Source: Squalus acanthias
Lineage: Eukaryota
Assembly: GCA_030390025.1 (NCBI GenBank)
Contig: CM059431.1
Coordinates: forward strand, 133,364,001 to 133,428,000
Reading direction: 5' to 3'
Length of the DNA: 64,000 bases
In this document: positions 1,849 through 64,000 of the stretch, one piece after another
How positions within the stretch are numbered: position 1 is the stretch's first letter
Layout of the letters: each line of letters starts with the position of its first letter
Notes under the pieces: model-generated
The model's input: only the letters and a program-made list of their open reading frames with translations
What the model was told of the DNA's origin: nothing
Database searches by the model: none
Made by a program: the position numbers and the translations under genes

Positions 1849-1885
<37 letters not shown>

Positions 1886-18838: not shown

Positions 18839-18859
18839 CATGACGACAGAAAAATCATG

Positions 18860-24505: not shown

Positions 24506-25274
24506 TTCGGTGTGAAAACTCACCATTCACCAAGGTCCCAGATGGCCAGTTGCCCTCGTTACCAGTTCGCATTTCCAGCAACTTGCAGGGCAAAACATTT
24601 TCAAGCTGAAGGGTGAGGGAAAAGTCTAACTAACAGCGCACACTGTGAGATGCCCCGCTCCAGCAACATTTGGCCCAATAATGTTTTATTTTAACTTCAA
24701 TTTAAGATGAAGATTTTAATTGGGCACTTACGATAACAGTGCTGTCTGCTTTTACTTAATCAAGGTTTTAAATTAATGGGCTAGACTTTGCTAAAAATAA
24801 AATAATGGCATCAGAACGATACCCGCCATTATTAATGCACAGGTCAGTTTAAAAAAAAAAGAAGTTTTTATTCATTTTTATGGGATGTGGGCGTCGCTGG
24901 CAGGGCCAGCATTTATTGCCCATCCCTAGTTGCCCTTGAGAAGGTAGTGGTGAGCCGTCTTCTGGAACTGCTGCAATCCTTGTGGTGAAGGTACACCCAT
25001 AGTGCTGTTAGGGAGGGAGTTCCAGGATTTTATCCAGTGACGATGAAGGAACGGCGATATACTTCTAAGTCAGGATGGTGTGTGACTTGGAGAGGAACTT
25101 GCAGGTGATGGTGTTCCCATGTGCTTGCTGTCCTTGTCCTTCTAGGTGGAAGAGGTCGCGGGTTTGGGAGGTGTTGCCGAAGAAGCCTTGGTGAGTTGCT
25201 GCAGTGCATCTTGTTGATGGTATACACTGCAGCCATGGTATGCCAGTGGTGGAGGGAGTGAATGTTTAAGGTGG

Positions 25275-26228: not shown

Positions 26229-26570
26229 GCTGAGATACAAAGGACCAGTGAGTGCAAAGAAGTAAAAAGTAATTGAAGTGTGACGTCACCAGAAAGCAGG
26301 TAAGTGATTGGTTGGTGAGTATTTCACTATTTCTCGCTTTTTTCCGAACTTGGGCGTCTAAATTTAAGTGCCTTGGTGCAGATTAAAAGATATACGTGTT
26401 CCAAAGTGGTGCCGGCGCAGGGGAAGAAGCTGATTGGTGAGTAGTGGGTGAGTGCTTTATTTTTTCTTCAATTTTAAGTTTATTTCTTTAAAGGTAGTCA
26501 TAGTTAAGGTAGTTCGGGAGAACGAGAATCCGAGAGTTTAAATTTGAGGTAAGAGTTTTTTAATCAAAGT

Positions 26571-27521
26571 ATGGCAGGGGACCTCAGTCCCATGCGTTGC
26601 ACGGCCTGCAGCATGTGGGAATTCCTAGACGCTTCTTGCAGTCAGGATGACCACATGTGCAGTAAGTGCCAACGGTTTGGCCAACTTGAGATCCGGTTTT
26701 CGGAGCTCGAGCGTCAGCTGGAGGCACTGCGGTGTATCCGGGAGGCTGAGAGTTACGTGGATAGCACGTTTTTAGATGTGGTCACCCCGCAGCTTAAGAA
26801 AGTGCAGTCAGAGAGGGAATGGGAGACCACCAGTCAGAAGAAAGGGGGCAGGCAGGTAGTCAGAAAAGCCTCAGAGTGCATCTCACTCAACAACTGTTTT
26901 TCTGTGTTGGAAAACGGTGAAAGTGACGGTTCCTCTGGGGAGTGCAGCCAGAGCTAAGTTCACGGCACTGTGGGTGGCTCAGCTGCACAAGGGGGGAGGA
27001 GTAAGAGTGGAAGGGTAATAGTGGTAGGAGACTCAATAGTGAGGGGTGCAGACAGGCGTTTCTGCGGCCGCAGATGTGACTCCAGGATGGTATGTTGCCT
27101 CCCTGGTGCCAGGGTCAAGGATGTCACTGAACAGCTGCAGGGCATTCTGAAGGGGGAGGGCGAACAGTCAGAGGTCGTGGTTCACATTGGTACCAACGAC
27201 ATGGGTAGAAAGAGGGATGAGGTCCTGCAACAAGAATTTAGGGAGCTAGGTAGCAGATTAAAAAGCAGGACCTCAAAGGTTGCAATCTCTGGATTACTCC
27301 CGGTGCCACGTGCTAGTGAGTATAGGAATAGGCGGATAGAGCAGATGAATGCATGGCTAAAGAGTTGGTGCAGGAGGGAGGGCTTTAGTTTCCTGGATCA
27401 CTGGGTCTGTTTCTGGGGAAGGTGGGACCTGTACAAGTCGGACGGGTTGCACCTGAACCGGAATGGGACCAACATCCTTGCGGGGAGATTTGCTAGTACT
27501 GTTGGGGAGGGTTTAAACTAA
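26571..27521 (+). pseudogene. CR1 ORF1 (CxxC..CxxC finger, coiled coil, SGNH/GDSL esterase) with a single nonsense codon
   Basis: ORFs 26571-26957 and 26970-27521 share a frame. TAA at 26955 is CAA in the paralog near 17254. Blocks GDSIVRG, HIGTND and DGLHLN are present. Confidence 0.9.
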
Positions 27522-27625
27522 CTTGGCAGGGGGATGGGATACGGAGTGGAGCTATAGTAGGGGGTGATGCACAGCCAAATATAGAGGAAAGAACAAGTCA
27601 GCCTGGAAGGCAGAGCAAATATGTA

Positions 27626-43263: not shown

Positions 43264-45889
43264 AACATCCCGGCTGTAGTGCTGAAGACTAGTGCTCCTG
43301 AACGAGCCGTGCCTCTAGCCAAGCTGTTCCAGTACAGCTACAACACTGGCATCTACCTGACAATGTAGAAAACTGCCCAGTTATGTCCTGTCCACAAAAA
43401 GCAGGACAAATTCAATCCGGCCAATTACCGCCCCATCAGTCTACTCTCAATCATCAGCAAAGTGATGGAAGGTGTTGTCAACAGAGCTATCAAGCAACAC
43501 TTACTCACCAATAACCTGCTCACCGATGCTCAGTTCAGATTCCGCCAGGACCACTCAGCTCCAGACCTCATTACAGCCTTGGTCCAAACATGGACAAAAG
43601 AGCTGAATTACAGAGGTGAGGTGAGAGTGACTGCCTTTGACATCAAGGCAGCATTTGACCGAGTGTGGCAACAAGGAGCCCTAGTAAAATTAAAGTCAAT
43701 GGGAATCAGGGGGAAAACTCTCCACTGGCTGGAGTCATACCTAGCACAAAGGAAGATGGTCGTGGTTGTTGGAGGTCAATCATCTCAGCCCCAGGACATC
43801 ACTGCAGGAGTTCCTCAGGGCAGTGTCCGAGGCCCAACCATCTTCAGCTGCTTCCTCAATGACCTTCCCTCCATCATAAGGTCAGAAGTGGGGATGTTCG
43901 GTTCCATTCGCAACTCCTCAGATAATGAAGCAGTTTATGCCCGCATGCAGCAAGACCTGGATGACATTCAGGCTTGGGCTGATAAGTGGCAAGTAACATT
44001 CGTGCCACACAAGTACCAGGCAATGGCTATCTCCAACAAGTGAGCATCTAACCACCGCCACTTGACATGCAACGACATAATCATCACCGAATCCACCACC
44101 ATCAACATCCTGAGGGTCACCATTGACCAGAAACTTAACTGGACCAGCCACATATATACTGTGGCAACAAGAGCAAGTCAGAGACTGGGTATTCTGTGGC
44201 AAGTGTCTCACCTCCTGACTCCCCAAAGCCTTTCCACCATTTACAAGGCACAAGTAATGAGTGTGAATGAATACTCTCCACTTGCCTGGATGAGTGCAGC
44301 TTCCAACAACTCAAGAAGCTCAACACCATACAGGACAAAGCAGCCTGCTTGATTGGCAGCCCATCCACCACCTTAAACATTCACTCCCTCCACCACCGGC
44401 GTACCGTGGCTGCAGTGTGTACCATCTACAAGATGCACTGCAGCAACTCGCCAAGGCTTCTTCGGCAACACCTCCCAAACCCACGACCTCTACCACCTAG
44501 AAGGATAAGGGCAGCAGACGCATGGGAACACCATCACCTGCAAGTTCTCCTCCAAGTTACACACCATCCTGACTTGGAAATATATCGCCGATCCTTCATC
44601 GTCGCTGGGTCAAAATCCTGGAACTCCCTCCCTAACAGCACTGTGGGAGCACCGTCACCACACAGACTGCAGCGGTTCAAGAAGGTGGCTCACCACCACC
44701 TTCTCAAGGGCAATTAGGGATGGGCAAAAAATGTTTGCCTTGCCAGCAATGCCTGTGAAGGAATAAGTTATATAACCTATTCAGAAAAATACACTATCTT
44801 ATGAAAGAATTCTGGCCTTCTTAAAACATGACAAACTGAGTTTGGAAATTTAGAAACCTAACTATGAAATAGCTATGAAAGCATTCTGGCTATTGGGATA
44901 AGATAGTTGTTGACCCTGAATAAATACCCTTATTGAAACAGAAGGTGAAGGGCTCCGACAAGCTAAACTTTTGGGAACAAAACAATGGTTCACCCTGGAT
45001 AAGGTGTTCTAATTTACACTTCGTAAAGAAGTACATAAAGTAAGGAACACCTGCCGTCACGCTGTTTTTTATATGGTAAACTTAGAACACCTAGAGATGA
45101 GACATGATTCTGTAATGCTACCAGCTGATGTGGCAGTAAGAATTGCAGAGGTCGGCAGAAAGATGACTAGAGATAATTAGCTTGCATCAGCAGAAAACCT
45201 TAAAGGAAATACCACTGGAAAAGGGTATAAATATTGAACTCTCAAATGGGATAACAGACTCGCTTTAATCGGGCAAAGCTTCAGAGGTGGCTCTGTAGTC
45301 TCCAACTCTTTGTACCTCGGGGATCAAAGGTATTTGATATTGGTGGATATCCTGCCTGTATAAGAACTTTAAGAACTGTAATATTGTAGCGAAGTTAAGA
45401 TTTAAAAGTAAGATTCTCTGATAATAAGATAGCATTTTTTCTCTTTTTGGAACTGTTAATGCTGCAGTTGACTCACCAACTGTAAATTGCATGTTGGTTC
45501 TTTAATAAATCTATATATTTTTAGAATGATCTCACATAAGACTTCTGTATCAAAAACTCGCAAACTCAATCTCTGTACACTCTTTGGTGAGGAATTGCAG
45601 AATTCTGGGGGAGTTTTCCGGACCCTCATAATATCCAGAACGTTACAGTCTAGCTAAACTTATTAAAAGCGTTATCTGGAGGATGGTAACATTCTTGGGT
45701 TGTTCCTTTCCTTTAGGGAGAGATAGCCCGGACCTTTAGACCCAATTAAGCATCTTTAGGATTCGGCTACCTCAAGCTTTAGTTGAAAGTGAACGTCTGA
45801 GAAATATGCCTGATCCGGGGTAGCCCTAAAGGGGCTAGGACTAGTAAATACCCCTTCATGCCCACATCCCAGGAACGAATAAAAAAAAA
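43264..45889 (+). mobile_element. 5'-truncated LINE-B (43264-44753 plus 45859-45889); FADD motif deleted
   Basis: Homologous to 3961-5475. A 21-bp deletion lies between TGTTC repeats at ~43900. The tail is interrupted by an LTR-like insertion. Confidence 0.9.
44754..45858 (+). mobile_element. Solo-LTR-like insertion (1105 bp)
   Basis: TGTGAAGG...CCTTCA ends; 4-bp TSD TGCC (44750-53, 45859-62); TATAAA at 45226; AATAAA at 45504. Confidence 0.85.
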
Positions 45890-51112: not shown

Positions 51113-51993
51113 CCAGTCAGTTTAACCTCGGTAGTGGGGAAGCTTTAGAAACGATAATCCGAGACAAAATTAACAGTTACTTGGACAAGTATGGATTAAT
51201 TAAGGAAAGCCAGCACAGATTTGTTAAAGGCAAATCATGTTTAACTAACTTGATTGAGTTTTTTGATGAGGTAACAGAGAGGGTTGATGAGGGTAATGTG
51301 GTTGATGTGGTGTACAGGGACTTCCAAAAGGCGTTCGACAAGGTGCCACATAATAGGCTTGCCAGCAAAGTTGAAGACCATGGAATAAAAGGGACAGTGG
51401 CAGCATGGATACGAAATTGGCTAAGTGACAGGAAACAGAGAGTAGTGGTGAATGGTTGTTTATCGGGCTGGAGGAAGGTACACAGTGGTGTTCCCCCAGA
51501 GGTCGGTACTAGGACCACTGCTTTTCTTGATATATATTAATGACTTAGACTTGGGAGTACAGGGCACAATTTCAAAATTTGCAGATGACACAAAACTTGG
51601 AAGTATAGTCAACAGTGAGGAGAATAGTGATAGGGGGAGAAATTCGGTATCGCCCCGTTTGGGGCGCAATTATTGGCCGGGCGCAAAGTTTAGCGCCTGG
51701 CGCTAATTATCGCCTCCGACTGCAAACTTGGCTTTTATCGCCCCTGGAGGTGATTGGAGCGCTAAATCAGGCGCTGCACACCTGTCTTAAGGTGCAAAGG
51801 CCGAGGAGCGAGGCGCTAACTCAGAGTGCTGGCGAAGCTCAGGTGATATCAGTTAGCGATGGAACACAGACACACTGGCGCCGGACAGTTCTTAAAGGGG
51901 AGGGTCGATCTTGCACTCCAGCCACACCCTGCTCATTGGAGTCTTGAATCTCGGCCTGGAGAGACCTGTGCCTAAATTTTCCAGCCAAGGACC

Positions 51994-53699
51994 ATGGAGA
52001 GGGTGAGAGAACGAGCTCAGCGCTACAGCGAGCGGGACTTGGAGGCTCTGGTTGGCGCGGTGGAGCGCAGAAGGTCCATACTCTACCCTGAGAGTAGCAG
52101 GAGGCCTTTGCCGTGTGACTACAGAAGAGTGTGGAGGGAGGTGGCTCAGAGCGTCTCCTCCAGGAGCATGGTGCCCAGGACCCATGTACAATGTCGAAAA
52201 AAGTTCAACGACCTCACTCGGGTCGTCAGGGTGAGTGGCTTTTTTTCAATACCTCTCCATCCCTCCATCTCAACCTCACTCTATGGCCAGAGGGTCTTAA
52301 AACCCCAATGCCCAACACTCATCCAACACCTATGGCCCTCTCATAAAACACACACGCACATTCCACACCTTGCATACAGTAAGGGCTATTCAACTATGGG
52401 AGGCATATCAGGCAAGAGCATGGCTGTATATTGTAAGGGCTATTCAACTATGGGAGTCACATCAGGTAAGACCATGGCTGTATATTTACTCAGACGCCAT
52501 CCTTTTTCTTGCAGGCCAAGCAATCTCATAACAGGAGACAGCAGCAATGGACAGGTGGAGGGCAGCCTCAGCTGCAACCCCTCAGCGATTGTGGCAAGCC
52601 AGGTGATCGGTCCCATTGCCCCTGGAGAGGTCGACCCTGTTCGGGACAGCAATGGTAAGGTCATCAGCTTTCTCTCCTCTCGCATTCCACTTGTCCCTCA
52701 CAACACAAGCCTTTGACACTTTCAATCCAACTTACTAAATCGCTCCACTCCTTCCTCCCTTACTGCCCCCCTGTCCTCACGCTAAAGCCACTCTTGCACC
52801 TCCCTGCTTTCAGATGGTGATTCACCAGCTGAGGAGACGAGCCCTCAAGCAGCCAGTGGGAGCGAAGCCACAGGCGAGGAGGAAGAGGAAGCTGGAGCCT
52901 CAGCTCTCCCGAGGAAGCCCATGGCCACACTGGGACCACGTCTTCCCTGGAGGGGAGCAGGGGGGAAGGGTCTGATGAGGGTGAAGCTCCGGGACCCAGC
53001 GGGCTGCAGCAACGCGATATGGGTAGGGAAACTCGGGGGCCTTCTCCCCAGAGGGAGAGTAGGCCAGCGAGTCCTGCTGCACTGGACGCAAAGGAGAAGT
53101 GGCTCATCGCTGAAATGAACACCCAGGCAGTGGACATGCACACTCAGCTCATGGGTGCAGTGGGAAGGGTGCCCGAAAGCATTGATGCACTGGCAAGGAG
53201 TGTGGAGCACAGGCGGATGCCACGCAAATGCTTAGTGCTGCAATTCAGTCACTGGCTGCTGTGATCCAATCTCAGACTGGTCTCATGCAGACTCAGATTG
53301 AAGTCATGCAAGCACTGACTGCTGCCATCCTCGCTGGTTCAGCCACATTGCCCCGGGGCTCTCACTGTGCCGCAGCAGACCAGCAATCTGTGCTCCAGCA
53401 GATTGCTCCGGATGCTGAGGTGCTGCCCCGTGGGAGTGCCAGTGTGTCGGTCGAGCAGGGAGTTGCTGTCCTCTCTCAAGATGACAGCATTCCTGCTGCC
53501 ACCACTGTCACTTCAGGCCCTCCAGGCCCAGAGCTGGTCGAGGCCGTCCTTCGAGGGCATCTGTAGTCTCAGGTTCTGACATTCAGCAGCCTTCCACCAG
53601 CCTTGCTGCAGCCACTGGGGCCCCATTACGGAGGAGCAGTAGGGTGGGAACGGGGGAAGTGCACAAGGGAAGGGTTCACCCTCGAAGGGCAAAAAGTAG
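51994..53699 (+). pseudogene. Harbinger Myb/SANT partner gene, frameshifted after exon 1
   Basis: Exon 1 MERVRERAQRYSERDLEALV..RKKFNDLTRVVR|GTGAGT (51994-52230); deletions in exons 2-3. Confidence 0.85.
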
Positions 53700-53790
53700 G
53701 AGGTCTGACGAAGTGTTGGGAATGTTTTTATTAAAGGCCGAGGTTCATGTTCAAACTTTTGTTTCGTGTTTTGGCCATTATCTCCAGGTT

Positions 53791-54798
53791 AGATACATAG
53801 ATACATATAGAACAGTACAGCACAGTACAGGCCCTTTGGCCCTCGATGTTGTGCCGAGCATTGTCCGAGACCAAGATCAAGCTATCACACTCCCTATCCA
53901 GAGGCTCTGCAATCTCCTCCCTTGCCTCCCAAAGAATCCTAGGATATATCCCATCTGGCCCAGGGGACTTATCGACCCTCAGGTTCTTCAAAATTGCTAA
54001 AACATCTTCCCTCAGAACATCTACCACCTCCAGCCTATCCACCTTTATCACACTCTCATCCTCAAGAACATGGCCCCTCTCCTCGGTGAACACTGACGAA
54101 AAGTATTCATTCATCACCTCTCCTATCTCTTCTGACTCCATGCACAAGTTCCCACTACTGTCCTTGACCGGCCCTACCCTCACCCTGGTCATTCTTTTAT
54201 TTCTCACATAAGAGTAAAAAGCCTTGGGGTTTTTCTTGATCCGACCCGCCAAGGACTTCTCATGCCCCCTCCTAGCTCTCCTAAGCTCTTTTTTTAGCTC
54301 ATTCCTTGCTACCTTGTACCCCTCAATCGACCCAACTGAACCTTGTTTTCTCATCCTTACATACGCTTCCTTTTTCCTCTTGACTAGACATTCAACCTCT
54401 TTTGTGAACCATGGTTCTCTCACTCGGCCATTTCCTCCCTGCCTGACAGGGACATACCTATCAAGGACACGCAGTAATTGCTCCATGAAAAAGCTCCACT
54501 TTTCGTTTGTGCCTTTCCCTGATAGTTTCTGTTTCCATCTTATACTCCCTAATTCTTGCCTAATCGCATCATAATTACCCCTCCCCCAATTATAAACCCT
54601 GCCCTGCCGTATGGCCCTATCCCTCTCCATTGCAATAGTGAAAGTTACCGAATTGTGGTCACTATCTCCAAAGTGCTCTCCCACATACAAATCAAACACT
54701 TGGCCCGGTTCATTGCCCAGTACCAAATCCAACGTGGCCCCACCTCTTGTCGGCCTATCCACATATTGTGTCAGGAAACCCTCCTGCACACACTGTGT
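53791..54798 (-). mobile_element. Internally deleted CR1 (post-endonuclease linker joined directly to the 3' UTR/tail)
   Basis: PTRGGATLDLVL..SDH..KSPGPDGIYPRIL, then a jump at ~53895 to the 3' UTR and (TATGTATC)n tail; GGTT on both flanks. Confidence 0.82.
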
Positions 54799-54932
54799 GG
54801 TTGTGAGAACCAGTTATATTAATTAATGATTTTTTGTGTTTGTTTGTATTAGTTTGTCAAGAAATGACACACACAGAGTTTGTAAAATAAAAAAGTTTTT
54901 CTATTCAAAATGTACATATTTGGCCTTTGGAA

Positions 54933-57660
54933 TCATTGCTGCCTTGGCCGGCTTTGGGGTTGCGGGTTGCTTTCATTCATGTTGTTCTCCATGCCAGAAG
55001 CCATTTCCCGAGTAGGGGCCGAGAAGCGGCTTGTTATCAGTCGTTGACGGATCGCCCTTGCAGTTTCAACATTGTGGGCCTCCCTCCCGCCTTGGTGTTG
55101 CTGTTGATCATCCTCCTCCTCTTCCTCCTCCTCTTCCTCCTCCTCCGGTGGTGCACCAAGGCCTGGTGGCATTGACTGGGTCCTGAGGATTGCCAGGTTA
55201 TGAAGAATGCAGCACACAACTATGAAGAGGGAGACTCGCTCAGGTGAGTACTGCAGGGCTCCTCCTGAGTGGTCCAGACATCGGAACCGTTGCTTGAGCA
55301 CGCCGATCGTCTGCTCAATGATGTTCCTGGTGGCGAGATGGCTCTCATTATACCGCAGCTCAGCAGGGGTGTTGGGGTTACAGAGCGGTGTCATCAGCCA
55401 GGTGCACAGTGGATGATAACCCTTGTCCCCGAGGAGCCAACCACTTGGCTGATGCCATGCCTGGAAAAGGTCTGGCACAGCAGTCTGGTGCAGGATGAAA
55501 GCATCGTGGCTGCTGCTAGGATAGTGGGCATTGACAGCGAGTATCAGCTGTCTGTGGTCACAGACCAACTGGACATTTAAGGAGTGGAACCCCTTGCGGT
55601 TTTGGAACACCTCTGCATTCTCATGCGGTGCCTGCAATGCCATATGCGTGCAGTCAATGGCACCCTGCACCATGGGGAAGCCCGCTATCCTCGCAAAGCC
55701 CAATGCGCGTTCATGCTGTTTGGCCCGGGTCATCGGGAAAGAGATGTACTGGCGTCTCCTTTTATAGAGGGCATTTGTGACCTGACGGATACAGCAATGG
55801 ACAGTGAACTGGGAGATATTGGCGATGTCCCCAGCAGCTGCTTGAAAGGAGCCGGTGGCATAAAAATTCAGAGCCACTGTTGTGAAGGAATGAGCCATAC
55901 CTATTCAGAAAAATACACCATCCTATGAACAGAATTCTGACTTTATTAAAACATGACAGACTGGGTTTAAAAATCTAAAAGCCTCAACAACACAAAGCTG
56001 TAAACACCATACAGACATTTGAGATAAGAATCAGTTGTTGACACTAAAACAATAGCCCCATTGAAGCAGCAGATTGGAGCTTCCAGAAAGTCTGAGCTTT
56101 CAGAAGAACACAATAAGAATACCCAGTTAAATTGTTTAAAACCGACACTTTGTAAACAGGCACATGCAAGAAGCACAATGGTATAATGTTAAGGTGTCAT
56201 AAACCAACACTTCGGGAAACAGAAACACAGAACATTAAAGAAACATATGCCTTCATAAATATGACATCAAATGAAACAAGGAGACACAAAGTCTGTAAAA
56301 CAACCAATTGAAGTAGCTAGGAAGACAATCATGTACTCGGTTGAAGTGTTTTTAATTTATATGTTGTAAAAGATACAAACAGAAGACTTTGTAAATATGA
56401 CATCAATAGATTCACCAAGCAATCACATTGTGTTTGTGTTGAACTTGGAACAACTAGGAGACATGAAGTCTGCTTACAACCAGCTGAGGTGATTTAAGAA
56501 TTGAATAGAGACCTTCGTAAGAATGGTACCAAATAGATACATCTGTTATATCCATTTTTTATGATAAGTTTTGAACACCTCAAGATAGAGACACAAGTCT
56601 GCAAGCTAACAGCTGAACTGACAGTAAGAATAGAAAGAAGTCAACAGAAATATAACTAGAGATAATTAGCTTACATCAGCAGGAAACTTCAAAGGATATA
56701 CCACTGAAAAAAGGGTATAAAATATAAAACTTTCAAATAGGAAGACAGAAGTCGCTGGAAGGGGCAAAGCGATTCTCAGCTACAGAACCACTCTGTAAGC
56801 CTACAACTTTTTGAGTCTCGGGTAATCAAAAGTATTTGATTTTGGTGGATATCCTGGATTAAGAAAAAGTAGAAATGTAAAAATGTAACGAAGTTAAGAT
56901 TTGAGAATAAGGATCTCTGATGATAAGAATGGTAAGCTATTTGTTTTTGGAACTGTTAAAGTTGCGATTGACTCACCAACTGTTAACTGCATGTCGGTTC
57001 TTTAATAAATCTATATATTTTTAGAATTGTCTCATATAGTACTTCTGTATCAAACTCGCAAACTCAATCTCTGTACACTCTTTGGTGAGGAGTTGCAGAA
57101 TTCTGGGGGAGTTTTCCGGACCCTCATAATATCCGGAAGGTTACAGTCTAGTTAAACTTATTAAAAGTGCTATCTGGAGGACGGTAACATCTTCAAGTCA
57201 TTCCTTTCCTTTAGGGAGAGATAGTCTGAACCTTTAGACCCAATTAAGCATCTCTAGCATTCGGCTATCTCTAACTTTAGTTGAAGGTGAACGTCTGGGG
57301 AATACGCTTGATCTGGGGTAGCCCGAAAAGGGCTAGGACTAGAAATTATCCCTTCACTGTGACCTTCACTGCCTCCGACAGAGACATCCTGGTCCTCAGT
57401 TGAGGCTGCAGATCTGGCTGCAGCAGGTGGCAAAGCTCAGTGACCACCTCCTTGCTGAAGCGCAGCCTGCACAAACACTGCTCCTCAGACAAATGAATTT
57501 AGGAGAATTGTTCCCGGAATACCCTGGGAGGGTAAAGTCACCTGTGCAGAGGCCTGTTGGCCCTCCTCCGTCTGGCCATGATTGCCACTCTCTCTCTGCG
57601 TCTCTGTCGCCTCCGATTCTGCAGGCGCAGGATGACGACCCGAATCAGTGCAGCCCCCAA
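54933..57660 (-). pseudogene. Harbinger transposase split by the LTR-like insertion at VKVT|VALNFY
   Basis: N-part 57360-57660; C-part ORF 54933-55898 with GAIDCTH, LLGDKGY and IIEQTIG. The normal stop is mutated (TAG>TCG). Confidence 0.9.
55881..57356 (+). mobile_element. Solo-LTR-like insertion (1476 bp), same family as 44754-45858
   Basis: TGTGAAGG...CCTTCA; TSD CTGT (55877-80, 57357-60); TATAAA at 56716; AATAAA at 57004. Confidence 0.87.
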
Positions 57661-58599
57661 AGTCTCTTGGCAATCGAAGTAATGAAGGTCAAATCCAAAA
57701 GTACCTGCAAAGTGATGCTCAGTAGCCAAAACTACTTCACACAGCGTTGACTCCATGCAGAAGTCTCTCTATCTCTCGCTCAGAATCTCTCCCTCTCTGT
57801 CAGAATGAGTGGCGCAAAAATGTCTACCACAAGAAAAGGCAGGAAGAGGGCGCCTTTAAATAGCGACCCCCCAGCCCCTCACCGACTGGAAAATGTTCCA
57901 GTCTCCCTGTCGTTGCTTGCGGCAGGCGGAAAGGAGGGGGGCGCCACTCAATATCCGGTCCGGGGTGCCACCGGGGCGTTGCACGCTCGACTGATGTCAT
58001 GATCTGTGGGCGCAGGAGATCGGGGCGGTAGACTTTTGTGCCGCAGCAAAAACTCTAGTCAATTTCGCGAGAGGCGCAAACATCGTCGCGCCCGGGCGCT
58101 AGTTGCTTTGTGCCCCATTAGTGCCCTAAGAGGGGGGCAAAACGGGAGGCGCAAAACAGCCGAATTTTTCCCCCATAGATTTCAAGAGGACATAGACAGG
58201 CTGGTGGAATGGATGGACACGTGGCAGATGAAATTTAATGCAGAAAAGTGCGAAGTGATACATTTTGGCAGGAAGAATGAGGAGAGGCAATATAAGCTAA
58301 AGGGTACAATCTAAAGTGGGTGCATGGACAGAGAGACCTGGGGGTATATTTGCACAAATCGTTGAAGGTGGCAGGGCAGGTTGAAAAAACAATGAAAAAA
58401 GGATATGGGATCCTGGGCTTCATAAATAGAGGCCTAGAGTACAAAAGCAAGGAAGTTATGGTGAACCTGTATAAAACACTGGTTCAGCCTCAACTGGAGT
58501 ATTGTGTCCAATTCTGAGCACTGCACTTTAGAAAGGATGTGAAGGCCTTAGAGAGGGTGCAGAAAAGATTTACGAGAATGTTTCCAGGGATGAGGGACT

Positions 58600-60283
58600 T
58601 GTAAGGGTTTGCGTGCGTGTCTCTCAGCCTGTGAGATTCGTGTGGCTCTGTGCAGCCTGTATGTCAGTGCGGGTTTAGGCCTTGTTGCCTGTTCTGGTCT
58701 CCAGCCAGTCTGGGAACACTAGACACACCTGTGAGTGGTTCGAATCACTCGCCCTTACGGTTCTAGACACTGGACTTAGATGCGAGAGCAGTAATGGAGA
58801 TGAAACTCATGTAGACTCGGTTGAATGGTACGAAATGGAAAATCTTTATTGCATAATGTTCAAGATTACGAAATACATGTCATAAGCACAGATTAATGAC
58901 AGTACAATCTTACACGCAGTTATGTAACTAATTCTAGGGAAACGAGGAACGAACGACACACCGTAAATGGGGGCACACATTACAATTATCCTTAGTACTT
59001 AAACCCTCCCCTATCAATATCTGTCCTAGCTAGATTCGTAGGATTCGAGACTCATGCTCACCACTCGTGATAACTCGGAGAAATTCCGAATAGCTGATCG
59101 GATGTTTTCACCGCAGCACCCACGTGTCGATCAGGGGGTCTCCTGGCCCCACTTGTTTACTTGCTTCTGCTCCGGCTAGCAGGCTGGAACGTCTGTTGTT
59201 ATGAAGATCTGTGTTTGTGGGTTTCACGTACCAGTCAACACTTAAGAGAATAATCTCTCGGTGTCCGTCATGAGGATCTGCCCTGATGGGTTTCACAGAC
59301 CAGTCAATACCTCAAAGAAGAATCTTCCGGGGTCCGTTCTTTAAAGTTCAAAGAAGTCTTCCTGGCAAGGAAAATTGTCTATTTGACCTACAGGCGCGGT
59401 CGGGGCTTACTGACCGTGGCGATAAGTATGGTCTTCGTCTCTTCTCATCTCATCTCATCTCTTCTCGGGCCTTTGGTTCCGATGCCGGTTACCAACACAG
59501 GTCTTCGTGACACGACACGAGGTAGATCCGAACGGATCACAAAGTTCAACAGTCTTTTAAAAGAGACACCAGGCAAACAGGAACAAGACGGCGAGTCAAG
59601 AACACAGGAGCAGCCACGAGGATGAACACCAGCAAGATAAGAGGATAAGAGAAAGATGGACGGTTTGGGGCTTGCAATTATAGTGCAAAATCTTCCGTTT
59701 CCCGCCCAACCTTAATGTCTTTTCTTTTGTTTGGGTTTGGCGCTCAAATGTCTTGTATAGGTGATCTCCGTTTTTAATGGGTTTCGGGGCTACTCGTAAA
59801 TGTCTGAGTACCTGTTAATATTTCTCCCATTGTTTAATCGGTCGGTGTTCTCCCTGGAGGGGTTTTGGGGCCTCCAAGTGTTTTCTGTAACTACCCGCTA
59901 ACGGCTCTCTCATCGTAGAGTCGTTGGGATTTTACATATTAATGTCTTTGGATGGGCCCTTGATTACTTGGTACAATAGCCTTTATTCGTACCCGGGAGA
60001 CCGATTTCAGTATCTATGTGTATACTGCAAACCCATGATGTCTCGTGTATTATCTTCAATGTGCTGAATCTTAATCGGTCTTGTACAAATGTTTATTGGA
60101 ACGCCATCTTGTCTGCCTGTCGAAAAGTCCAGAATGTTCCGCCACGAGGTGCGGCGGCCATTTTACAAGCTGCCTGTGTCCACTTTGAAACCTGACAGCA
60201 TTCTGCTGAAATAAAAGCTGTTTGAACGAAACTATGTGTTTTCTCCTTATTTAATAAAATCGCGATATATTGCGAATTCTACA
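58600..60283 (-). repeat. Putative 3' LTR (1684 bp)
   Basis: Minus strand starts TGTAGAA right after PPT-like ACAGGAGGGAC and ends CCCTTACA at the CR1 junction; AATAAA at 58850-45. The second LTR is not in the window. Confidence 0.7.
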
Positions 60284-60732
60284 GTCCCTCCTGTTGATGC
60301 GAATAACTCCGCTTATCGTATCAAAAATATTGTGGTGAGCAATATTATCTCGATTTTCTTCGAATCCAGAAAATTAATCCCATAACTTAACCTAGCTAGG
60401 GTCTTTGTGTCGTCCTTATTTCCCAAGAAAATTACATTTTATAGCACCGTAGGCATTATTTGCCTTTAAACTTACACCACTTGTTTTCCTTCCAGGCGTA
60501 ACCAGGCCGATGCCTCTCGTATCACCTGTATATTCACATTTTTTATTCAGGGGAAGGAAAAACAAAACCCAAAACCAAATAATCATTTTTAACTACAACA
60601 CCATCACCAAAATAATCGACACCAACTCTTAAAACACGTCGAGTTCCAAACGTATTTACAGTCTTTGAAAATCATGATCGAGTACAAACTTCCGCGGCGC
60701 ACGTGGCGAGCGGGAGTGACGCCATTTTCCGA

Positions 60733-63243
60733 TCACACGGTGCTTTCATCGTGCACGCGCACGTAACGTTCTCGCCACTCTCCCGTGTTTTCATGCTTGG
60801 TGAGGCGTTTGTCTCTTTTACAATGTACGACCAATAGGTACACTACAATAAAAACTTGGCATACGACTAAAATGTGGGAGGCTATCCTGATCCATGAAGG
60901 TACTTCAATATTGGTGAACAGATTCCACCACGGTGGAATTACTATATCCAGAATGTCTGTCCCTATCTCGACAGTTTTCTGCTCTAATGTGTAAAAATGT
61001 TTCTGTGACACCGCGACGGCTTTTAAAAGCTTGGTGAGGTGTTCAGGGAGAGGGGGAATGAGGTATCCGAAATGCGCGACGAATCGCTGCAAGTCGGTGA
61101 AATTCTCTTTTACCGTTAGATGAACAGTGGATGGTTCAGGGATTGGGACAATTCGCTGTTGTGCTACTTGAACTTCCGCCCTGGGTTTGAAACAGAAACT
61201 GCTGTCACTCACCGGACACCGGCTACGGTTTCCATGCTGGTAGTGTTGCGCTGCAGTGGTAACACAATATGTTCCACCCCCGATGTATGCTACCTGCGGA
61301 GGCACATGATCTTGTGCCATTGCCTCCATGGTGCAATTCATGGACTTGGCGCCAGCCGTTCTGAACCCGCACTGTGGTGTTAAAAAGGCATTCAAGTGCT
61401 GGGGACACAGTATTATGTGTGCTCCCCTGCCACGACAACCAGAGAGATCTGTACCTGTCATCGTTTGCTCCCAGCGGATGACGTAGGGTGGAACCGCTGC
61501 ATAGCGAATGTGGGCTCCCCCCTGAATGACACCAATGTTCTCTACCCGATACACCGGGGCGGGCTTTGCTGTGTCGCCCAAAACCGGCATACGTAATACT
61601 ATTCCCATGATAGTATGGTTTGATCGTCCGCAGTCCACGGGGACTGGGTAAGCTTCTGAAGCTAGCCTGAGCTGGCACGGGCTTAATGCGTTCTGAAAAG
61701 GGTGGAGCGCCCGCAGGTGTTTGTTACTTATCCAGGACGGGACCAAACCTTGTTTTAAATCCTCCAAATTACTGCGGCCCTCGCCCAGTAACCACGCCCC
61801 GTAAAGCACGCACACCTCGTTCTGCGCAGCTTGATCGGATGCATTCCGATCTTCCCTAATCAGGGCATTTACCGTCTTTGCATGTTTCTCTAACTCTGCT
61901 ATAATTTCCTTTAAATGGAGAGTCATGGCTTGGTCCTCGTGTAAACCCGACCCTACCACTTTATTCTCATCTGTTAGAATGTCTTTTAATTGTGTCTTTA
62001 AACCATTAATCTGGGTCTGCAGCTCCACACTGTCTAGAGCGTTGACCACAGATGTACCTGTGTTAAAAGCAGTGAACGCGTCGTTCACTACACCCCTTCT
62101 TTGCCTCCCTACTTGATCCAAAACTTCCTGTGGTGCGGTGTACAAACTTGTTTTATCAATTTCCGCGAAATCGAATTCGTAAAATTGTCTGAACATCTTG
62201 GTCAACAGGACCTGATACAACTGTTCCGTCTTTTTGGGGCACCACTCTGGTAACCGCACCTCGGTGAGATTTAAAATCACCGAGGCCACCGCGTAATGTA
62301 CCCCCTGGAATAGTATCTGGTCTGTGGGGACCAGTACCAAACCATTCCCGGGTCCCTTACTAGTTTTAGGGCACCCTTCCTCTTCAGCTAGAACCACCGG
62401 AATCGTGGGCGGGGCTTTGCGTGGGCGCGTAATGAGTTCAGTGGCATTTACCGGGATCGAAGAGTATGGGGCTCCGCACCCCCTGGTGCTCGCATCCCAC
62501 CTCATCCCCTGTCCGTTATCCTGCCATTGATTAATGAAAAATATGGAGATGCCTTTGGGGCAAGCGTACTTTGACCCCCACATGCATACATAAATTCCCT
62601 CATCCGGTTCCCACCATTTGTCCCAACAGACTCTCACTTGTCCGTTTGTCCCCGTAATTGTCCGATGGGTATTATTACCCAGTCGTTCCCACTCGACCGA
62701 AGAGTTCCTCATAGTTTTGCTCAGCTTTCGCAGCCACCACCATCGGCTCAATGGGACATTCCCATTACAAGTCAAACAAATCCGTTTGCCGACGGTGACG
62801 CTGATCCTGGGTGCGATGATCCTTACTTTGGGGCACATTAAAGAAGTCTCTTGGTAGGCAAACCCCGATGTGCTGGAATACTCCGTTGAGTTCGTTCCCA
62901 GCCATCCTGGCCACCTTCCCTTGTGGAAATAGGTGGTGGTCTCCTCAGCCTCCCGTCTTCCGGTCCCATCCACCGCGATGGGGGCCGTGTCCCCGGAGCA
63001 TCCAAACACCACGACATCCTTGGTGCGGCCTCGATAGGCCAATCCACATCCGATTGCCGCGAGCAATACTAGAATTCGTTCCATCCTTCCTTGGTTCCTG
63101 TGATCAGATAGAATGAGGTAGCCAGCCTCGCAAGAGTCTCTGGCTTTTGTGAAGGGTGAGCGGGTCCCCTGACCTCGCCTCACGTAAACTTCAACGTTCG
63201 CTGAATAAACTTTAACTAGACCTATCTCTAAAGCTCCCATCAT
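60733..63243 (-). CDS. env: Envelope/class I fusion glycoprotein (likely start Met at 63084, 783 aa) with an N-terminal Ig-like domain
   Basis: Uninterrupted ORF. Signal peptide MERILVLLAAIGCGLA; furin site RQRR (62106-62095); hydrophobic peptide and heptads; Cys-rich ectodomain; TM IASHILVVCQVFIVVYLLVVH; short basic tail. Confidence 0.85.
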   Translation of the reverse strand: MMGALEIGLVKVYSANVEVYVRRGQGTRSPFTKARDSCEAGYLILSDHRNQGRMERILVLLAAIGCGLAYRGRTKDVVVFGCSGDTAPIAVDGTGRREAEETTTYFHKGRWPGWLGTNSTEYSSTSGFAYQETSLMCPKVRIIAPRISVTVGKRICLTCNGNVPLSRWWWLRKLSKTMRNSSVEWERLGNNTHRTITGTNGQVRVCWDKWWEPDEGIYVCMWGSKYACPKGISIFFINQWQDNGQGMRWDASTRGCGAPYSSIPVNATELITRPRKAPPTIPVVLAEEEGCPKTSKGPGNGLVLVPTDQILFQGVHYAVASVILNLTEVRLPEWCPKKTEQLYQVLLTKMFRQFYEFDFAEIDKTSLYTAPQEVLDQVGRQRRGVVNDAFTAFNTGTSVVNALDSVELQTQINGLKTQLKDILTDENKVVGSGLHEDQAMTLHLKEIIAELEKHAKTVNALIREDRNASDQAAQNEVCVLYGAWLLGEGRSNLEDLKQGLVPSWISNKHLRALHPFQNALSPCQLRLASEAYPVPVDCGRSNHTIMGIVLRMPVLGDTAKPAPVYRVENIGVIQGGAHIRYAAVPPYVIRWEQTMTGTDLSGCRGRGAHIILCPQHLNAFLTPQCGFRTAGAKSMNCTMEAMAQDHVPPQVAYIGGGTYCVTTAAQHYQHGNRSRCPVSDSSFCFKPRAEVQVAQQRIVPIPEPSTVHLTVKENFTDLQRFVAHFGYLIPPLPEHLTKLLKAVAVSQKHFYTLEQKTVEIGTDILDIVIPPWWNLFTNIEVPSWIRIASHILVVCQVFIVVYLLVVHCKRDKRLTKHENTGEWRERYVRVHDESTV

Positions 63244-63380
63244 TTTATCATTTTCTGTTAAAATTAAACTACAAACTTAACCTTATTTAAAACTATAAAC
63301 TTATAACCTTAAACTATAAACTTAGAAACCTATCCTAAACTTATTACTGTACAGCGCCGCCCGTACTCAGGGCGGCCCCT

Positions 63381-63998
63381 TTAAATTCTGAGAAGGCTGC
63401 TGCGAGCTCTTCCCGACGGTGGGAGGGCACTGACCCTTTCCTTTGATCTGCCGCAGCCTGTTGCTGTTGCGATGGGACCGGATCCTATCTGGGCTGCCTT
63501 AACCTTAAGTCTGCGCCTTGGGGCAGTCTGGGGACATGACCACATCTTCCTGGGCTGGGGTGCCCGACCTGACCTACGAGGAGTTGTCGGGGGCATGAAC
63601 CCCAGGACCGACGGACCGGGTTCCGAGACTTCCACCGGGACGACCTGTGGTTCCACCACAGTCGCTGGCTCCGCCTCCGCTGACTCCGCCTCCCTAACCT
63701 CGGGACTTGCAGCTTGTGGCTCCGCCCTGCTCGGCCCAGCAGGCGGCCCTTCACTCGCGATCCCTGCCTCCCCCGAGGGCGGGACGTTCAAAGCGGGCGG
63801 CTCGGGCTCGGAGGTTCTCACCGTCACTCCCTGTGGTCTCACAGCGGCTGGCTCCGCCTCCCCTAGCTCCTCCCTCCTGTGTTCGGGACCTGCAGCCTCT
63901 GTGTCCACCCTGTGCGGATCTCCATCTGCAGCCCGTGTCCTCCCTATACCTAAAATGGGGGCGACCCTTTCGTTCCCCAAATCCCCCTCGTCTTCATC
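63381..63998 (-). CDS. C-terminus of an upstream ORF (Pro/Glu/Ala-rich; pol tail or accessory protein), open to the window edge
   Basis: No stop from the window edge to TAA 63381. Internal repeat EAEPAxV.PQ.V.V..SEP and a PRRSGR motif. Confidence 0.55.
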   Translation of the reverse strand, partial: DEDEGDLGNERVAPILGIGRTRAADGDPHRVDTEAAGPEHRREELGEAEPAAVRPQGVTVRTSEPEPPALNVPPSGEAGIASEGPPAGPSRAEPQAASPEVREAESAEAEPATVVEPQVVPVEVSEPGPSVLGFMPPTTPRRSGRAPQPRKMWSCPQTAPRRRLKVKAAQIGSGPIATATGCGRSKERVSALPPSGRARSSLLRI

Positions 63999-64000
63999 AC

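Follow-up and report, generated by a model that had tools for sequence, protein, structure and literature searches.

An endogenous retrovirus of Squalus acanthias with a predicted F-type envelope fusogen and a probable N-terminal Ig-like module

The window, a stretch of 64,000 nucleotides of Squalus acanthias contig CM059431.1 (GCA_030390025.1), carries an uninterrupted env frame on its minus strand. The locus raises two questions, namely which class of fusogen this env encodes, and what the long segment is that precedes the fusogen in the same chain. An earlier note, made from the letters alone, had proposed an F-type fusogen with an extra immunoglobulin (Ig)-like domain at its N terminus. 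We consider it probable, taking the evidence as a whole, that the frame is the env of a young endogenous retrovirus (ERV) and combines an F-type fusogen with an N-terminal Ig-like receptor-binding head.

The env frame and its provirus

From stop to stop, the env frame extends to 63276 and holds a further upstream ATG at 63243; the Met at 63084 was chosen as the start of the hydrophobic leader common to the relatives (Table 1). Rereading the sequence confirmed what the note had listed, i.e. an intact ORF with a predicted signal peptide, an RQRR site that leaves 453 aa downstream, and a C-terminal anchor, a CX6CC motif being absent. About 237 aa lie upstream of the F2-like piece, which spans roughly aa 238–326 and in which Cys238 and Cys282 are conserved among relatives. 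At the cleavage position, R-X-K/R-R was counted by eye in 14 of the 23 aligned relatives that have residues there; the only other such motif in Env, RDKR at aa 757, lies within the cytoplasmic tail. The segment after RQRR is weakly hydrophobic (mean Kyte–Doolittle 0.56), and the most hydrophobic 19-aa windows of Env begin at aa 732–738.

Table 1. Features of the env frame and of the provirus that carries it (window positions unless L031 is named)
Feature	Position	Strand	Details and basis
3' LTR	58600..60283	minus	1684 nt, TG...CA ends; LTR alignment and direct reading
5' LTR	L031 5682-7364		past window end; partner of 3' LTR
4-bp target-site duplication	58596..58599	minus	GACT on plus strand, AGTC on element strand; direct reading
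Twin of 4-bp duplication	L031 7365-7368		just outside 5' LTR
Candidate polypurine tract	60284..60295	minus	purine-rich (..AGGAGGGAC); abuts 3' LTR, role suggested by position
pol 3' end	63381..64000	minus	P/E/A-rich tail after integrase; pol runs on in frame into L031 (PR-RT-tether-RNase H-IN)
env ORF	60733..63084	minus	783 aa plus stop; frame reading, copy search
Putative signal peptide, aa 1-16	63037..63084	minus	MERILVLLAAIGCGLA, hydrophobic leader; start conserved in relatives, cleavage point by eye
Lineage-specific N-terminal segment, aa 17-83	62836..63036	minus	conserved C29 and GRWPGWLGxNST.YSS
Ig-superfamily-like domain, aa 84-175	62560..62835	minus	C106 ... W115-117 ... DEGIYVC167; profile, Pfam and ESM evidence
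Linker region with Cys, aa 176-237	62374..62559	minus	N-glycosylation sequon at N213
F2-like segment, aa 238-326	62107..62373	minus	beta strands aa 241-272, helix aa 284-305; model and alignment
Furin-type cleavage motif RQRR, aa 327-330	62095..62106	minus	motif scan
Fusion-peptide position, aa 331-355	62020..62094	minus	GVVNDAFTAFNTGTSVVNAL..; weakly hydrophobic in lineage, low pLDDT in model
Long helices, predicted heptad region A, aa 333-444	61753..62088	minus	model helices 109-152, 159-220 (+224)
Beta-rich core, aa 477-645	61150..61656	minus	8 conserved cysteines; aligns with F head domains
Membrane-proximal helix, predicted heptad region B, aa 679-711	60952..61050	minus	predicted model
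Transmembrane anchor, aa 734-756	60817..60885	minus	followed by 27-aa tail; model and hydrophobicity

The env belongs to an LTR provirus of 12,765 bp with the order LTR-gag-(in-frame stop)-pol-env-LTR. Its two LTRs are 99.585% identical across 1685 aligned columns, which agrees with the note's reading of a young insertion. The gag frame encodes 643 aa with a CCHC knuckle, and an in-frame stop precedes pol. Pol matches RVT_1 (3.9e-36), RT_RNaseH_2, RNase_H (2.4e-20), Integrase_H2C2 and rve in Pfam, and contains a dual RNase H (RT_RNaseH_2/RT_RNaseH at aa 470–602 and RNase_H at aa 650–792), the combination of tether and RNase H being a feature of all retroviruses. Downstream of the integrase, '..MGPYNIVDK..' was found together with a weak SH3_Tf2-1 match. 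A putative primer binding site was read 3' of the 5' LTR (TGGCGACCGCGGCAGGAC). The note had placed the intact frame amid decayed neighbours. Decayed transposons do lie nearby in the window, but they are unrelated to the provirus, whose own gag and pol are open frames located mostly past the window end.

The same genome holds at least 57 full-length env copies (aa 1–783, 99–100% protein identity) on many contigs, and 54 of the 57 scored are stop-free. Among 30 copies fetched, 29 were open, with 0–6 of 783 residues differing from the window copy. Across 435 pairs of these 30 copies, pS was 0.056 and pN was 0.0034, giving a pN/pS of 0.06, an exact value that is biased because the copies were taken from the head of a ranking by protein score, which depresses pN. 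By region, pN/pS fell from 0.11 in the N-terminal part to 0.09 in F2 and 0.04 in F1, and at the protein level the N-terminal part evolves ~2.7 times faster than F1. The non-coding flanks of the same 30 copies diverge by 3.7% and 4.4%. The ranking bias cannot account for a ratio of 0.06 beside 4–6% silent and non-coding divergence; with the flanks ~4% different, env was therefore under purifying selection as the element spread. Dozens of intact copies under such strong purifying selection point to recent spread by infection. The ORF is almost certainly the retroviral env of a multi-copy young ERV, and the element is probably a retrovirus still or very recently spreading in an elasmobranch.

Predicted fold of Env

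Gamma-type retroviral Envs are marked by a C-X6-CC loop, an immunosuppressive region and a TM subunit of ~200 aa. A motif scan of all 783 aa found no C-X6-CC, a Pfam search returned no TLV_coat match for Env, and 453 aa follow the cleavage site; a gamma-type TM was rejected, as the earlier note had also held.

To place the fusogen, we turned to predicted structure. The AlphaFold2 model of aa 225–783 has a mean pLDDT of 71.9, and a Foldseek search of the PDB with it gave 250 matches at E ≤ 1e-3, all of those listed being paramyxo-/pneumovirus F, with hPIV3 F at the top (E 1.9e-11). VIA-align yielded a Z of 12.2 both to hPIV3 F (335 aligned) and to post-fusion Nipah F (rmsd 5.0, 290 aligned); 49 of its best 50 entries were F proteins, with 290–365 residues aligned at ranks 1–4. 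In BFVD, 56 matches at E ≤ 1e-3 included mononegaviral glycoproteins, baculovirus F and paramyxovirus F0. The modelled heptad region A is extended, resembling post-fusion F. By sequence, the picture is different. Pfam Fusion_gly (PF00523) did not match Env even at E ≤ 10, and a six-frame search of the genome with PF00523 found none, as was also the case in control genomes, so that this search carries no information on absence. The whole-Env Pfam search gave nothing significant, and the best matches seen for the whole Env among PDB sequences were antibody light chains at E about 0.8. A family profile of the F part reached solved F proteins at E 1.8–9.9, which is not significant. Because the sequence-profile matches are insignificant, the F assignment rests on the predicted structure, which was built from 38 sequences.

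The likeness to paramyxovirus and pneumovirus F consists of a predicted fold shared over the F2 strands, heptad region A, beta-rich head and heptad region B, and of an internal polybasic cleavage site before the fusion-peptide position, with a C-terminal TM anchor. It differs in the sequence, with 6–15% identity and no match to the PF00523 family. On the strength of the model, the part after aa 238 very probably adopts an F-type class I fusogen fold, and the F2/F1 layout that the note had suggested gains support. F has no extra N-terminal domain, whereas the window Env has a module of ~220 aa, bearing the Ig-like domain, before F2 in the same chain; in paramyxoviruses the attachment protein is separate from F.

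We then examined the N-terminal module. A profile of aa 84–175 plus nine relatives, searched against PDB sequences, returned 460 of them at E ≤ 1, and the best 60 listed belong to the Ig superfamily throughout. Among them are DIP-alpha (the best, at 6.5e-6), JAM-A (1.8e-5) and a titin Ig domain (2e-4), with the best E-values partly summing several Ig domains per chain and single-domain matches ranging from 2e-4 to 1e-2. The matches cover positions 4–82 of 85 and align the B-strand Cys, the C-strand Trp and the F-strand D-x-G-x-Y-x-C, which in the window Env are C106, W115–117 and DEGIYVC167. In the alignment across sharks and frogs, G16, C23 and G80 are invariant and C84 is nearly so, and the Ig-hallmark columns persist in shark and frog proteins with an overall identity of ~20%. 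Pfam Ig_3 matched aa 84–175 at 17.1 bits (E 0.0077; cut-off 30), and at E ≤ 1 it picked up 7 of the 10 family members, with 7.6e-4 as the best value; no Pfam Ig family reached its cut-off. In an ESM feature search, nine of the ten best family-bearing matches fell in one Ig clan (scores 0.87–0.90, lead level), and ESM Atlas on aa 17–240 gave scores ≤0.80, also at lead level. The AlphaFold2 model of the N-terminal part has a mean pLDDT of 37.3, and a fold search with this low-confidence model gave mixed beta proteins with a best Z of 5.0. Judged by the sequence profiles, an Ig-like domain likely precedes F2, in line with the earlier note.

The note's further suggestion that the Ig-like domain was captured did not hold up in that form. 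The domain is common to shark and frog relatives, and no host donor was found among the 50 database proteins that match Env at E ≤ 1e-3; any capture is therefore ancient and unproven. These 50 matches and the 57 copies in the genome put the frame well beyond a chance reading. A profile search with nine full-length Envs retrieved seven close relatives alone, with no wider host range and no link to lokiretrovirus Envs.

Lineage of the element

The element was compared with lokiretroviruses, for which the note had mentioned a Mononegavirales-F-like Env. Both have an F-like, not gamma-type, env with a signal peptide, an R-X-K/R-R site, a fusion peptide, a coiled coil and a TM anchor (Wang & Han, Mol Biol Evol 2021; PMC7947760), and both have a dual RNase H. 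One reading of the element is a lokiretrovirus of cartilaginous fishes that escaped the 2020 screen, its Env being a decorated lokiretrovirus Env. By eye, the F2 starts are alike (GPGNGLVL vs PGPxSGI[VM]L of the consensus Envs printed in PMC7947760), as are the fusion-peptide motifs (G.LFGSGMS of the frog relatives vs GSLFS.G.S there). The Pol RT is about equidistant from Ty3 (248 bits), MLV (235 bits) and foamy virus (221 bits), which would fit a deep branch. Against this reading, two Pol trees, one without a mixture model and the other with fewer rows and a mixture model, place P0087 outside the window clade and other dual-RNase-H sequences (SH-aLRT 92 and 93), P0087 being the single lokiretrovirus stand-in, chosen by a 15-aa Loki-Xtr integrase motif, in trees that do not include the published references. 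The bullfrog sequence P0072 differs from the printed Loki-Rca Pol, so that frogs hold both kinds. PF00523 matches the lokiretrovirus Env at E 2.2e-7 in the paper but not the window Env, and the Chondrichthyes rows of its survey table show 0 positives, with no cartilaginous-fish host (PMC7947760). In the consensus Envs given there, the leader passes straight into F2 (Bsp, Aro, Oja, Sri, Ame, Dcl, Xla, Xtr and Rca) or is long and then followed by F2 (Ofa), and none of these has the Ig module of the window Env (PMC7947760). We regard the lokiretrovirus reading as rather improbable, and a link to lokiretroviruses was not sustained.

Other systems share parts of the architecture. As we propose for the window Env, foamy virus Env has an F-like 'class Ib' core and a receptor-binding module of its own, but that domain sits between the subunits and is accompanied by a leader peptide, unlike the N-terminal module of the window Env (Fernandez et al., Sci Adv 2024; PMC11468914). 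The F-part model can be aligned with post-fusion FV Env at Z 8.8. The Pfam families of foamy Env, Gag and protease have no match in the element, and its Gag carries a CCHC knuckle, in contrast to foamy viruses. The N-terminal domains of coronavirus spike, a much larger protein from an unrelated genome type, are not known to be Ig-like. Its layout matches the one proposed for the window Env, with receptor-binding domains placed N-terminally on an F-like core and a furin-type site separating the two; F domain II is missing from spike (PMC11468914). F has been described as a minimal scaffold to which receptor-binding modules were added N-terminally (coronavirus spike) or between the subunits (foamy Env) (PMC11468914).

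F-type fusogens also occur in a DNA virus and in LTR retroelements, as baculovirus F and errantivirus Env, and the F-part model matched CuniNPV Ld130 at 8.9e-12 as well as other baculovirus F proteins in BFVD. These differ in having invertebrate hosts, and the retroelements belong to the Ty3/gypsy type, which has one RNase H. According to a preprint, no intact vertebrate ERV is homologous to the invertebrate elements, and its main text contains 'immunoglobulin' and 'Ig-like' 0 times (10.1101/2023.10.26.564294). ERV4 was rejected as an identity: it is listed with a 5-bp target duplication, no Gag zinc finger and no GPY/F motif (Chong et al. 2014; PMC4299795, Table 1), as opposed to the 4-bp duplication, CCHC knuckle and GPY-type motif of the window element. 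Ovex1, compared by description, resembles it in the in-frame gag-pol stop and in an odd large Env without CX6CC.

A possible role of the N-terminal module

In the mechanism that we propose, the signal peptide would bring Env into the ER, and a furin-type protease would cleave at RQRR to give an N-terminal subunit (aa 17–330) and an anchored F1-like subunit (aa 331–783). The latter would present, in order, the fusion-peptide position, heptad region A, the Cys-rich beta core, heptad region B and the TM anchor. The Ig-bearing module may then serve as a built-in receptor-binding head, replacing the separate attachment protein of paramyxoviruses, and receptor contact would trigger F-type refolding and thereby membrane merger. 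For this Env we infer that the signal peptide and the furin site are cut, that it forms a trimer and holds an F2–F1 disulfide, that the Ig module binds a receptor and that the protein fuses membranes. The module lies at the N-terminal end of the subunit that cleavage would release, and no other part of Env evolves as fast. For the receptor-binding role itself, we put the chances at about even.

Several other readings were weighed against this explanation. The note had raised co-option, and a host gene descended from a retroviral env, such as a syncytin or a restriction factor, would fit the long intact frame and the strong purifying selection. Such a lone or co-opted gene was rejected as extremely improbable, given the at least 57 near-identical full-length copies on many contigs within complete proviruses, LTR pairs that are 98.96–99.585% identical in three copies, and the position of the window copy between LTRs with a target duplication, beside open gag and pol. 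The Ig resemblance could also be a matter of motifs, with the N-terminal 220 aa forming another beta-rich domain or two small ones. The low model confidence (pLDDT 37.3) and the fold search point in this direction, as do the Pfam Ig scores below cut-off, the lead-level ESM scores (0.78–0.90) and L045, a divergent intact relative in which W replaces the second Cys. This is hard to reconcile with Ig-superfamily proteins in 60 of 60 listed PDB matches over nearly the full profile length with hallmark residues aligned, with the same columns kept between sharks and frogs, and with a Chiloscyllium relative whose automatic source name is 'Ig-like domain-containing protein'; we consider a motif-level likeness quite unlikely. 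A genuine Ig-like domain may still do something other than bind a receptor, e.g. act as a prefusion cap, as a glycan or antigen shield, or as an immune-modulating or decoy surface, leaving receptor contact to the F head, as the pneumovirus F head can itself contact the receptor and lokiretrovirus Env presumably also does. The module holds 4 of the 10 N-X-S/T sequons of Env (N65, N127, N137 and N213), and it is strongly constrained (pN/pS 0.11), with divergence outside the arms-race range. The lokiretrovirus elements encode no env besides the consensus Envs that lack the module (PMC7947760), so that a retrovirus can make do with a bare F core. On the other side, the N-terminal cleaved-off part usually binds the receptor in single-gene class I spikes (PMC11468914), the module evolves fastest within Env, and Ig domains often serve in adhesion, with DIP, JAM, Dscam and contactin among the best matches of the profile. 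A module that is not a receptor binder is, in our view, unlikely, and we retain the Ig-like receptor-binding head as the preferred explanation.

F-like envelopes have come to light in retroviruses only lately and in few cases (lokiretroviruses in 2020, foamy virus Env in 2024), and they bear on the origins of retroviral envelopes. For retroelements, we found no description of an Env that joins an F-type fusogen to an N-terminal Ig-like module. The element points to a lineage in elasmobranchs and frogs, with a Pol apart from the lokiretrovirus stand-in P0087, and its dozens of intact copies to recent infectious spread in a cartilaginous fish host, a host group from which no exogenous retrovirus is known to have been isolated. 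Tentatively, we go one step further and suggest a deep-branching, so far unnamed lineage of retroviruses in cartilaginous fishes and frogs that is neither lokiretrovirus, class I, ERV4 nor foamy-like, whose members were infectious up to very recent times and might still be in circulation, and in which an Ig-superfamily receptor-binding head was added at the N terminus of a minimal F-type fusogen, giving a one-gene spike independently of coronaviruses and foamy viruses. If true, this Env would be a natural intermediate between an F protein with a separate attachment protein and the single-chain spikes, and the origin of retroviral envelopes would become directly testable. The window Env also offers a compact natural F-plus-head protein for structural comparison with spike and foamy Env.

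The env frame and its F-type fusion part

The env frame is uninterrupted and encodes a product of 783 aa that opens with a hydrophobic leader, MERILVLLAAIGCGLA. The stop-to-stop frame extends to 63276 and holds a further upstream ATG at 63243; the Met at 63084 was taken as the start because relatives have the same Met before the leader. About 237 aa lie N-terminal to the F2-like piece, 453 aa follow the furin-type motif RQRR, and the strongly hydrophobic anchor is succeeded by a 27-aa tail. The 783-aa Env contains no C-X6-CC and ten N-X-S/T sequons, four of them within the N-terminal module. Reading the motifs directly from Env, we thus recover the layout described in the earlier note: an open frame with RQRR and a C-terminal TM, no CX6CC in the long segment past the cleavage motif, and some 230 extra aa before F2.

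Searches of Env against Pfam and PDB sequences returned nothing, and a profile of 38 relatives matched solved F proteins no better than E 1.8–9.9. Using the 38-relative alignment, we obtained an AlphaFold2 model of aa 225–783 with a mean pLDDT of 71.9 and 162 residues at 90 or higher (model residue + 224 = Env residue). Foldseek against the PDB gave 250 matches at E ≤ 1e-3, and all matches listed were paramyxo- or pneumovirus F proteins, the best rows being hPIV3 F (1.9e-11) and post-fusion RSV F (3.6e-10). VIA-align, over a span of model residues 21 to ~437, returned Z 12.2 both for hPIV3 F, with 335 residues aligned, and for post-fusion Nipah F, with 290 aligned at rmsd 5.0; among its best 50 entries 49 were F proteins, the other being a post-fusion foamy virus Env (Z 8.8). 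Eleven cysteines are kept in relatives (238, 282, 425, 485, 550, 560, 572, 584, 607, 623 and 631), and a putative Cys282–Cys425 bridge, analogous to that of F, would join the subunits. Of the 23 relatives that have residues at the aligned cleavage site, 14 show R-X-K/R-R, as counted by eye. Just past RQRR the window Env has an only weakly hydrophobic peptide; that of the frog relatives is more typical and Gly-rich. Judged by the predicted model, the identity of the C-terminal part as an F-type fusogen, as the earlier note had proposed, is well supported.

The best BFVD matches were insect and fish mononegavirus glycoproteins, baculovirus F, paramyxovirus F0 and epsilonretrovirus Envs. The model of window 60736–62412 (−) matched the epsilonretrovirus Envs of walleye epidermal hyperplasia virus 1 (E 2.5e-10) and walleye dermal sarcoma virus (1.7e-7), and feline foamy virus Env (E 5e-5). 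Such predicted folds suggest that the F-type core may be commoner in fish retroviruses than the literature consulted says.

Features of the Env protein, its provirus and other parts of the sequence (L031, flanking stretch past the window end; L045, another stretch of the same genome; aa, Env residues)
Feature	Location	Strand	Remarks
env frame	window 60733..63084	−	
Ig columns, strand B	alignment G16, C23		G.x.x.C; C23 = C106 in protein
Ig columns, strand C	Trp		
Ig columns, end	alignment G80, C84		DEGIYVC167
F2 strands	aa 241–272		model
F2 helix	aa 284–305		model
Furin-type motif RQRR	aa 327–330		
RQRR + fusion-peptide position			model, low-confidence loop
Heptad region A long helices	aa 333–376, 383–444		model, extended as post-fusion
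Beta-rich core	aa 477–645		model
Heptad region B helix	aa 679–711		model
Hydrophobic anchor	aa ~734–756		
3' LTR of window copy	window 58600–60283		
5' LTR of window copy	L031 5682–7364		
Gag	L031 3872–5800	−	
Pol C-terminal tail	window 63381–63998	−	Pro/Glu/Ala-rich
Second env of the family	L045 1189–3540	+	G000:C4:121881432-121886423
DDE_Tnp_4 transposase frame	window 54936–55904	−	E 1e-35
Myb/SANT-like frame	window 51976–52713	+	Myb_DNA-bind_5, E 6e-10
RT fragment, unrelated retroelement	window 43369–44040	+	RVT_1, E 8e-28
360-aa frame	window 53734–54813	−	
Very strong strand asymmetry	window 1–2000		GC skew 0.70, AT skew 0.68
Strand asymmetry	window 16001–20000, 24001–30000		GC skew 0.2–0.38

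The N-terminal Ig-like module

An exhaustive single-sequence search with Env found 50 relatives at E ≤ 1e-3, which by their source names come from sharks and skates (skate, sawshark, whale shark, Mustelus, Chiloscyllium and Heterodontus) and frogs (Pelodytes, Mantella with 16 cluster members, and Xenopus), along with unnamed records. Distant relatives align with the window Env from ~aa 221–235 onward, ahead of which each has its own N-terminal part of 140–180 aa. When aligned, the frog and shark N-terminal parts have Ig-domain columns in common, and the flanking segments aa 17–83 and 176–237 are specific to this shark/skate lineage. A 10-sequence profile of the Ig region matched 460 PDB sequences at E ≤ 1, and all 60 listed belong to the Ig superfamily. 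They include DIP-alpha (6.5e-6), JAM-A (1.8e-5) and titin (2e-4); VEGFR2, Dscam, contactins, CD8, CD79b, antibody V domains and shark NAR were matched as well. The best values sum several domains per chain, single-domain chains standing at 2e-4 to 1e-2. Pfam Ig_3 was found in seven of the ten members at E ≤ 1 (best 7.6e-4), its curated cut-off being reached by none of the ten (17.1 bits against 30 for the window's domain). A language-model search pointed, at lead level, to Ig clusters (0.87–0.90). An AlphaFold2 model of aa 17–240 from 13 sequences had a mean pLDDT of 37.3, and the best hit of its fold search (Z 5.0) is noise. The Ig domain claimed to precede F2 is thus favoured by profile and conserved columns and gained nothing from structure prediction; on the sequence evidence, the N-terminal domain is probably Ig-like.

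By the earlier note, the claim would fall if this combination were already standard. Within Env's own family it is, as the Ig-like columns are common to sharks and frogs, and the Chiloscyllium relative bears the automatic source name 'Ig-like domain-containing protein'. Among described elements it is not. In the lokiretrovirus consensus Envs, as given in part of the supplement of Wang & Han (PMC7947760), the leader runs directly into the F2 start 'PGPxxG[IL]..', whereas the window Env has the Ig-like module first. The terms 'immunoglobulin' and 'Ig-like' have no occurrence in the Odin paper, the 2026 ERV structure review or the main text of an errantivirus preprint (10.1101/2023.10.26.564294); 'immunoglobulin' has none in the Troyka and Ovex1 papers, and 'Ig-like' none in the foamy Env paper (Fernandez et al. 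2024, PMC11468914). Full-text literature, a scope outside which lie bioRxiv supplements and subscription journals, yielded no F-type retroviral Env with an Ig-like module.

A young provirus with many intact copies

The env frame sits in a complete provirus of 12,765 bp, whose LTRs match at 99.585% across 1685 aligned columns, have TG...CA ends and are flanked by a 4-bp target duplication that reads AGTC along the element strand; a purine tract adjoins the 3' LTR on its upstream side. Upstream of env are a gag frame of 643 aa with one CCHC knuckle, then an in-frame stop, and a pol frame of ~1495 aa that runs from L031 into the window and encodes protease, RVT_1 (3.9e-36), an RNase-H-like tether, RNase_H (2.4e-20), Integrase_H2C2 and rve. 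All three frames are open. Past the integrase, Pol ends in a tail of at least 205 aa (window part) with no Pfam match. Gag has a long N-terminal stretch of coiled-coil-like look, and no capsid family was recognised in it; an smc-like gene is mentioned for some lokiretrovirus elements in PMC7947760. The decayed neighbours of the earlier note proved to be unrelated elements, namely the transposase with its Myb partner, a pair typical of Harbinger-type DNA transposons, and the RT fragment. The 360-aa frame has no Pfam match and looks by eye like the N-terminal part of a LINE ORF2. Simple or satellite repeats probably make up the strand-asymmetric stretches.

Searched in six frames, the 3.7-Gb genome gave 12,916 first-look candidates, from which 57 env matches were scored. 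All 57 span aa 1–783 at 99–100% identity, 54 being stop-free and three having one stop each; in the copies fetched, similarity extends across the entire 5.3 kb surrounding the ORF. Among 30 fetched copies, 29 are open and one is interrupted once by an internal stop; relative to the window Env they show 0–6 changes in 783 residues, and relative to one another 15–68 in 2352 nucleotides. Over 435 pairs, pS was 0.056 and pN 0.0034, the latter biased downward by the sample being the top of a protein-score ranking; pN/pS was 0.06 for the whole env, 0.11 for aa 1–237, 0.09 for F2 and 0.04 for F1. The 212 variable codons comprise 165 silent and 47 replacing ones, and the non-coding flanks diverge by 3.7% downstream and 4.4% upstream. 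Under neutral decay at 4–6% per site, each pair should differ by about a hundred replacements and contain several stops, a load that ranking among ~13,000 candidates could not hide. Because replacements are few despite 4–6% silent and non-coding divergence, the env lineages diverged under strong purifying selection. Such selection across copies marks spread by reinfection, not intracellular copying; the logic is established for ERVs and was reportedly set out by Belshaw and colleagues in 2004.

Of the two origins first offered for the intact frame, co-option as a host gene is rejected, since at least 57 near-identical full-length copies exist and the window copy is LTR-flanked with open gag and pol; a young insertion agrees with the LTR identities, which in three copies are 99.585%, 99.585% and 98.96%. 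The lokiretrovirus table implies 0.162 per 36.82 My, or ~2.2e-9 per site per year (PMC7947760), and with this rate assumed, 0.4% LTR divergence amounts to roughly 1 My. Since evolution may be slower in cartilaginous fishes, the age is safely stated as a few million years.

Contigs of four runs with different organism labels match the provirus (window 58500–64000) at 99% or more, at which level provirus-like contigs number 188/794 in X1, 229/1013 in X4, 82/546 in X9 and 59/340 in X13; either closely related species have the family in common or it has recently passed from one to another. The second env of the family is a very divergent, open 784-aa frame whose product is closer to P0013 of Chiloscyllium (45% identity) than to the window Env (25%), and many decayed env relatives at 33–81% identity to P0013 lie elsewhere in the genome. 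Around one env copy, the 8.3 kb on either side (L036 and L038, G000:C23) are 99.28% alike, which means tandem proviruses or a local duplication. In two whale shark gene models (P0036 and P0017), the env leader and N-terminal domain are fused to gag-like or pol-like pieces, which may reflect splicing of env transcripts or no more than errors in the models.

Affiliation and proposed working of the Env

Against solved structures, Pol scored 248 bits with Ty3, 235 with XMRV/MLV RT, 221 with foamy PR-RT and ~57–60 with HIV; it is about equally far from the first three and far from HIV. Its closest database relatives, named 'NYNRIN-like' or 'Gypsy retrotransposon integrase-like', are 37–44% identical over RT to IN and come from frogs, coelacanth, ostrich and softshell turtle. 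Two quick maximum-likelihood trees, one of 38 rows (LG+G4) and one of 27 (LG+C20 PMSF), took Ty3/gypsy-like rows as root. As lokiretrovirus stand-in we used P0087, a toad protein 33% identical, chosen because a 15-aa integrase motif is common to it and the printed Loki-Xtr consensus. In both trees, which hold this one stand-in and no named reference viruses, the dual-RNase-H rows form one clade (100) with P0087 first to branch (92 and 93), and the window Pol groups with frog and coelacanth rows, separate from the group with gamma-like sequences. The lokiretrovirus label was not upheld, P0087 branching outside the window's clade and the consensus Envs being without the Ig module. ERV4 was rejected: its table (Chong et al. 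2014, PMC4299795) gives a 5-bp duplication and neither a zinc finger nor GPY/F, against 4 bp, one knuckle and a GPY motif here. Class I shares the in-frame gag–pol stop, 4-bp duplication, knuckle and GPY/F, but tree and bit scores do not place the window Pol there.

Env would enter the ER, be glycosylated and trimerise, and RQRR would be cut by a furin-type protease. The N-terminal subunit would bear the Ig-like head on F2 strands woven into the F core, and the C-terminal one the fusion peptide, heptad regions A and B and the anchor. With a single env gene in a simple retrovirus, receptor binding has to reside in Env, and the N-terminal module would be the obvious site. PMC11468914 treats F as a minimal scaffold taking receptor-binding modules N-terminally (coronavirus spike) or between subunits (foamy virus), a scheme that the window Env would fit. 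At the protein level the module outpaces F1 ~2.7-fold in its evolution and is still strongly constrained; alternatively to receptor binding, it may be a shield or a pre-fusion clamp, or have an immune role. Taken together, this is an F-type retroviral Env with a probable Ig-like head at its N terminus, and it belongs to a very young and very successful elasmobranch endogenous retrovirus with relatives in frogs.
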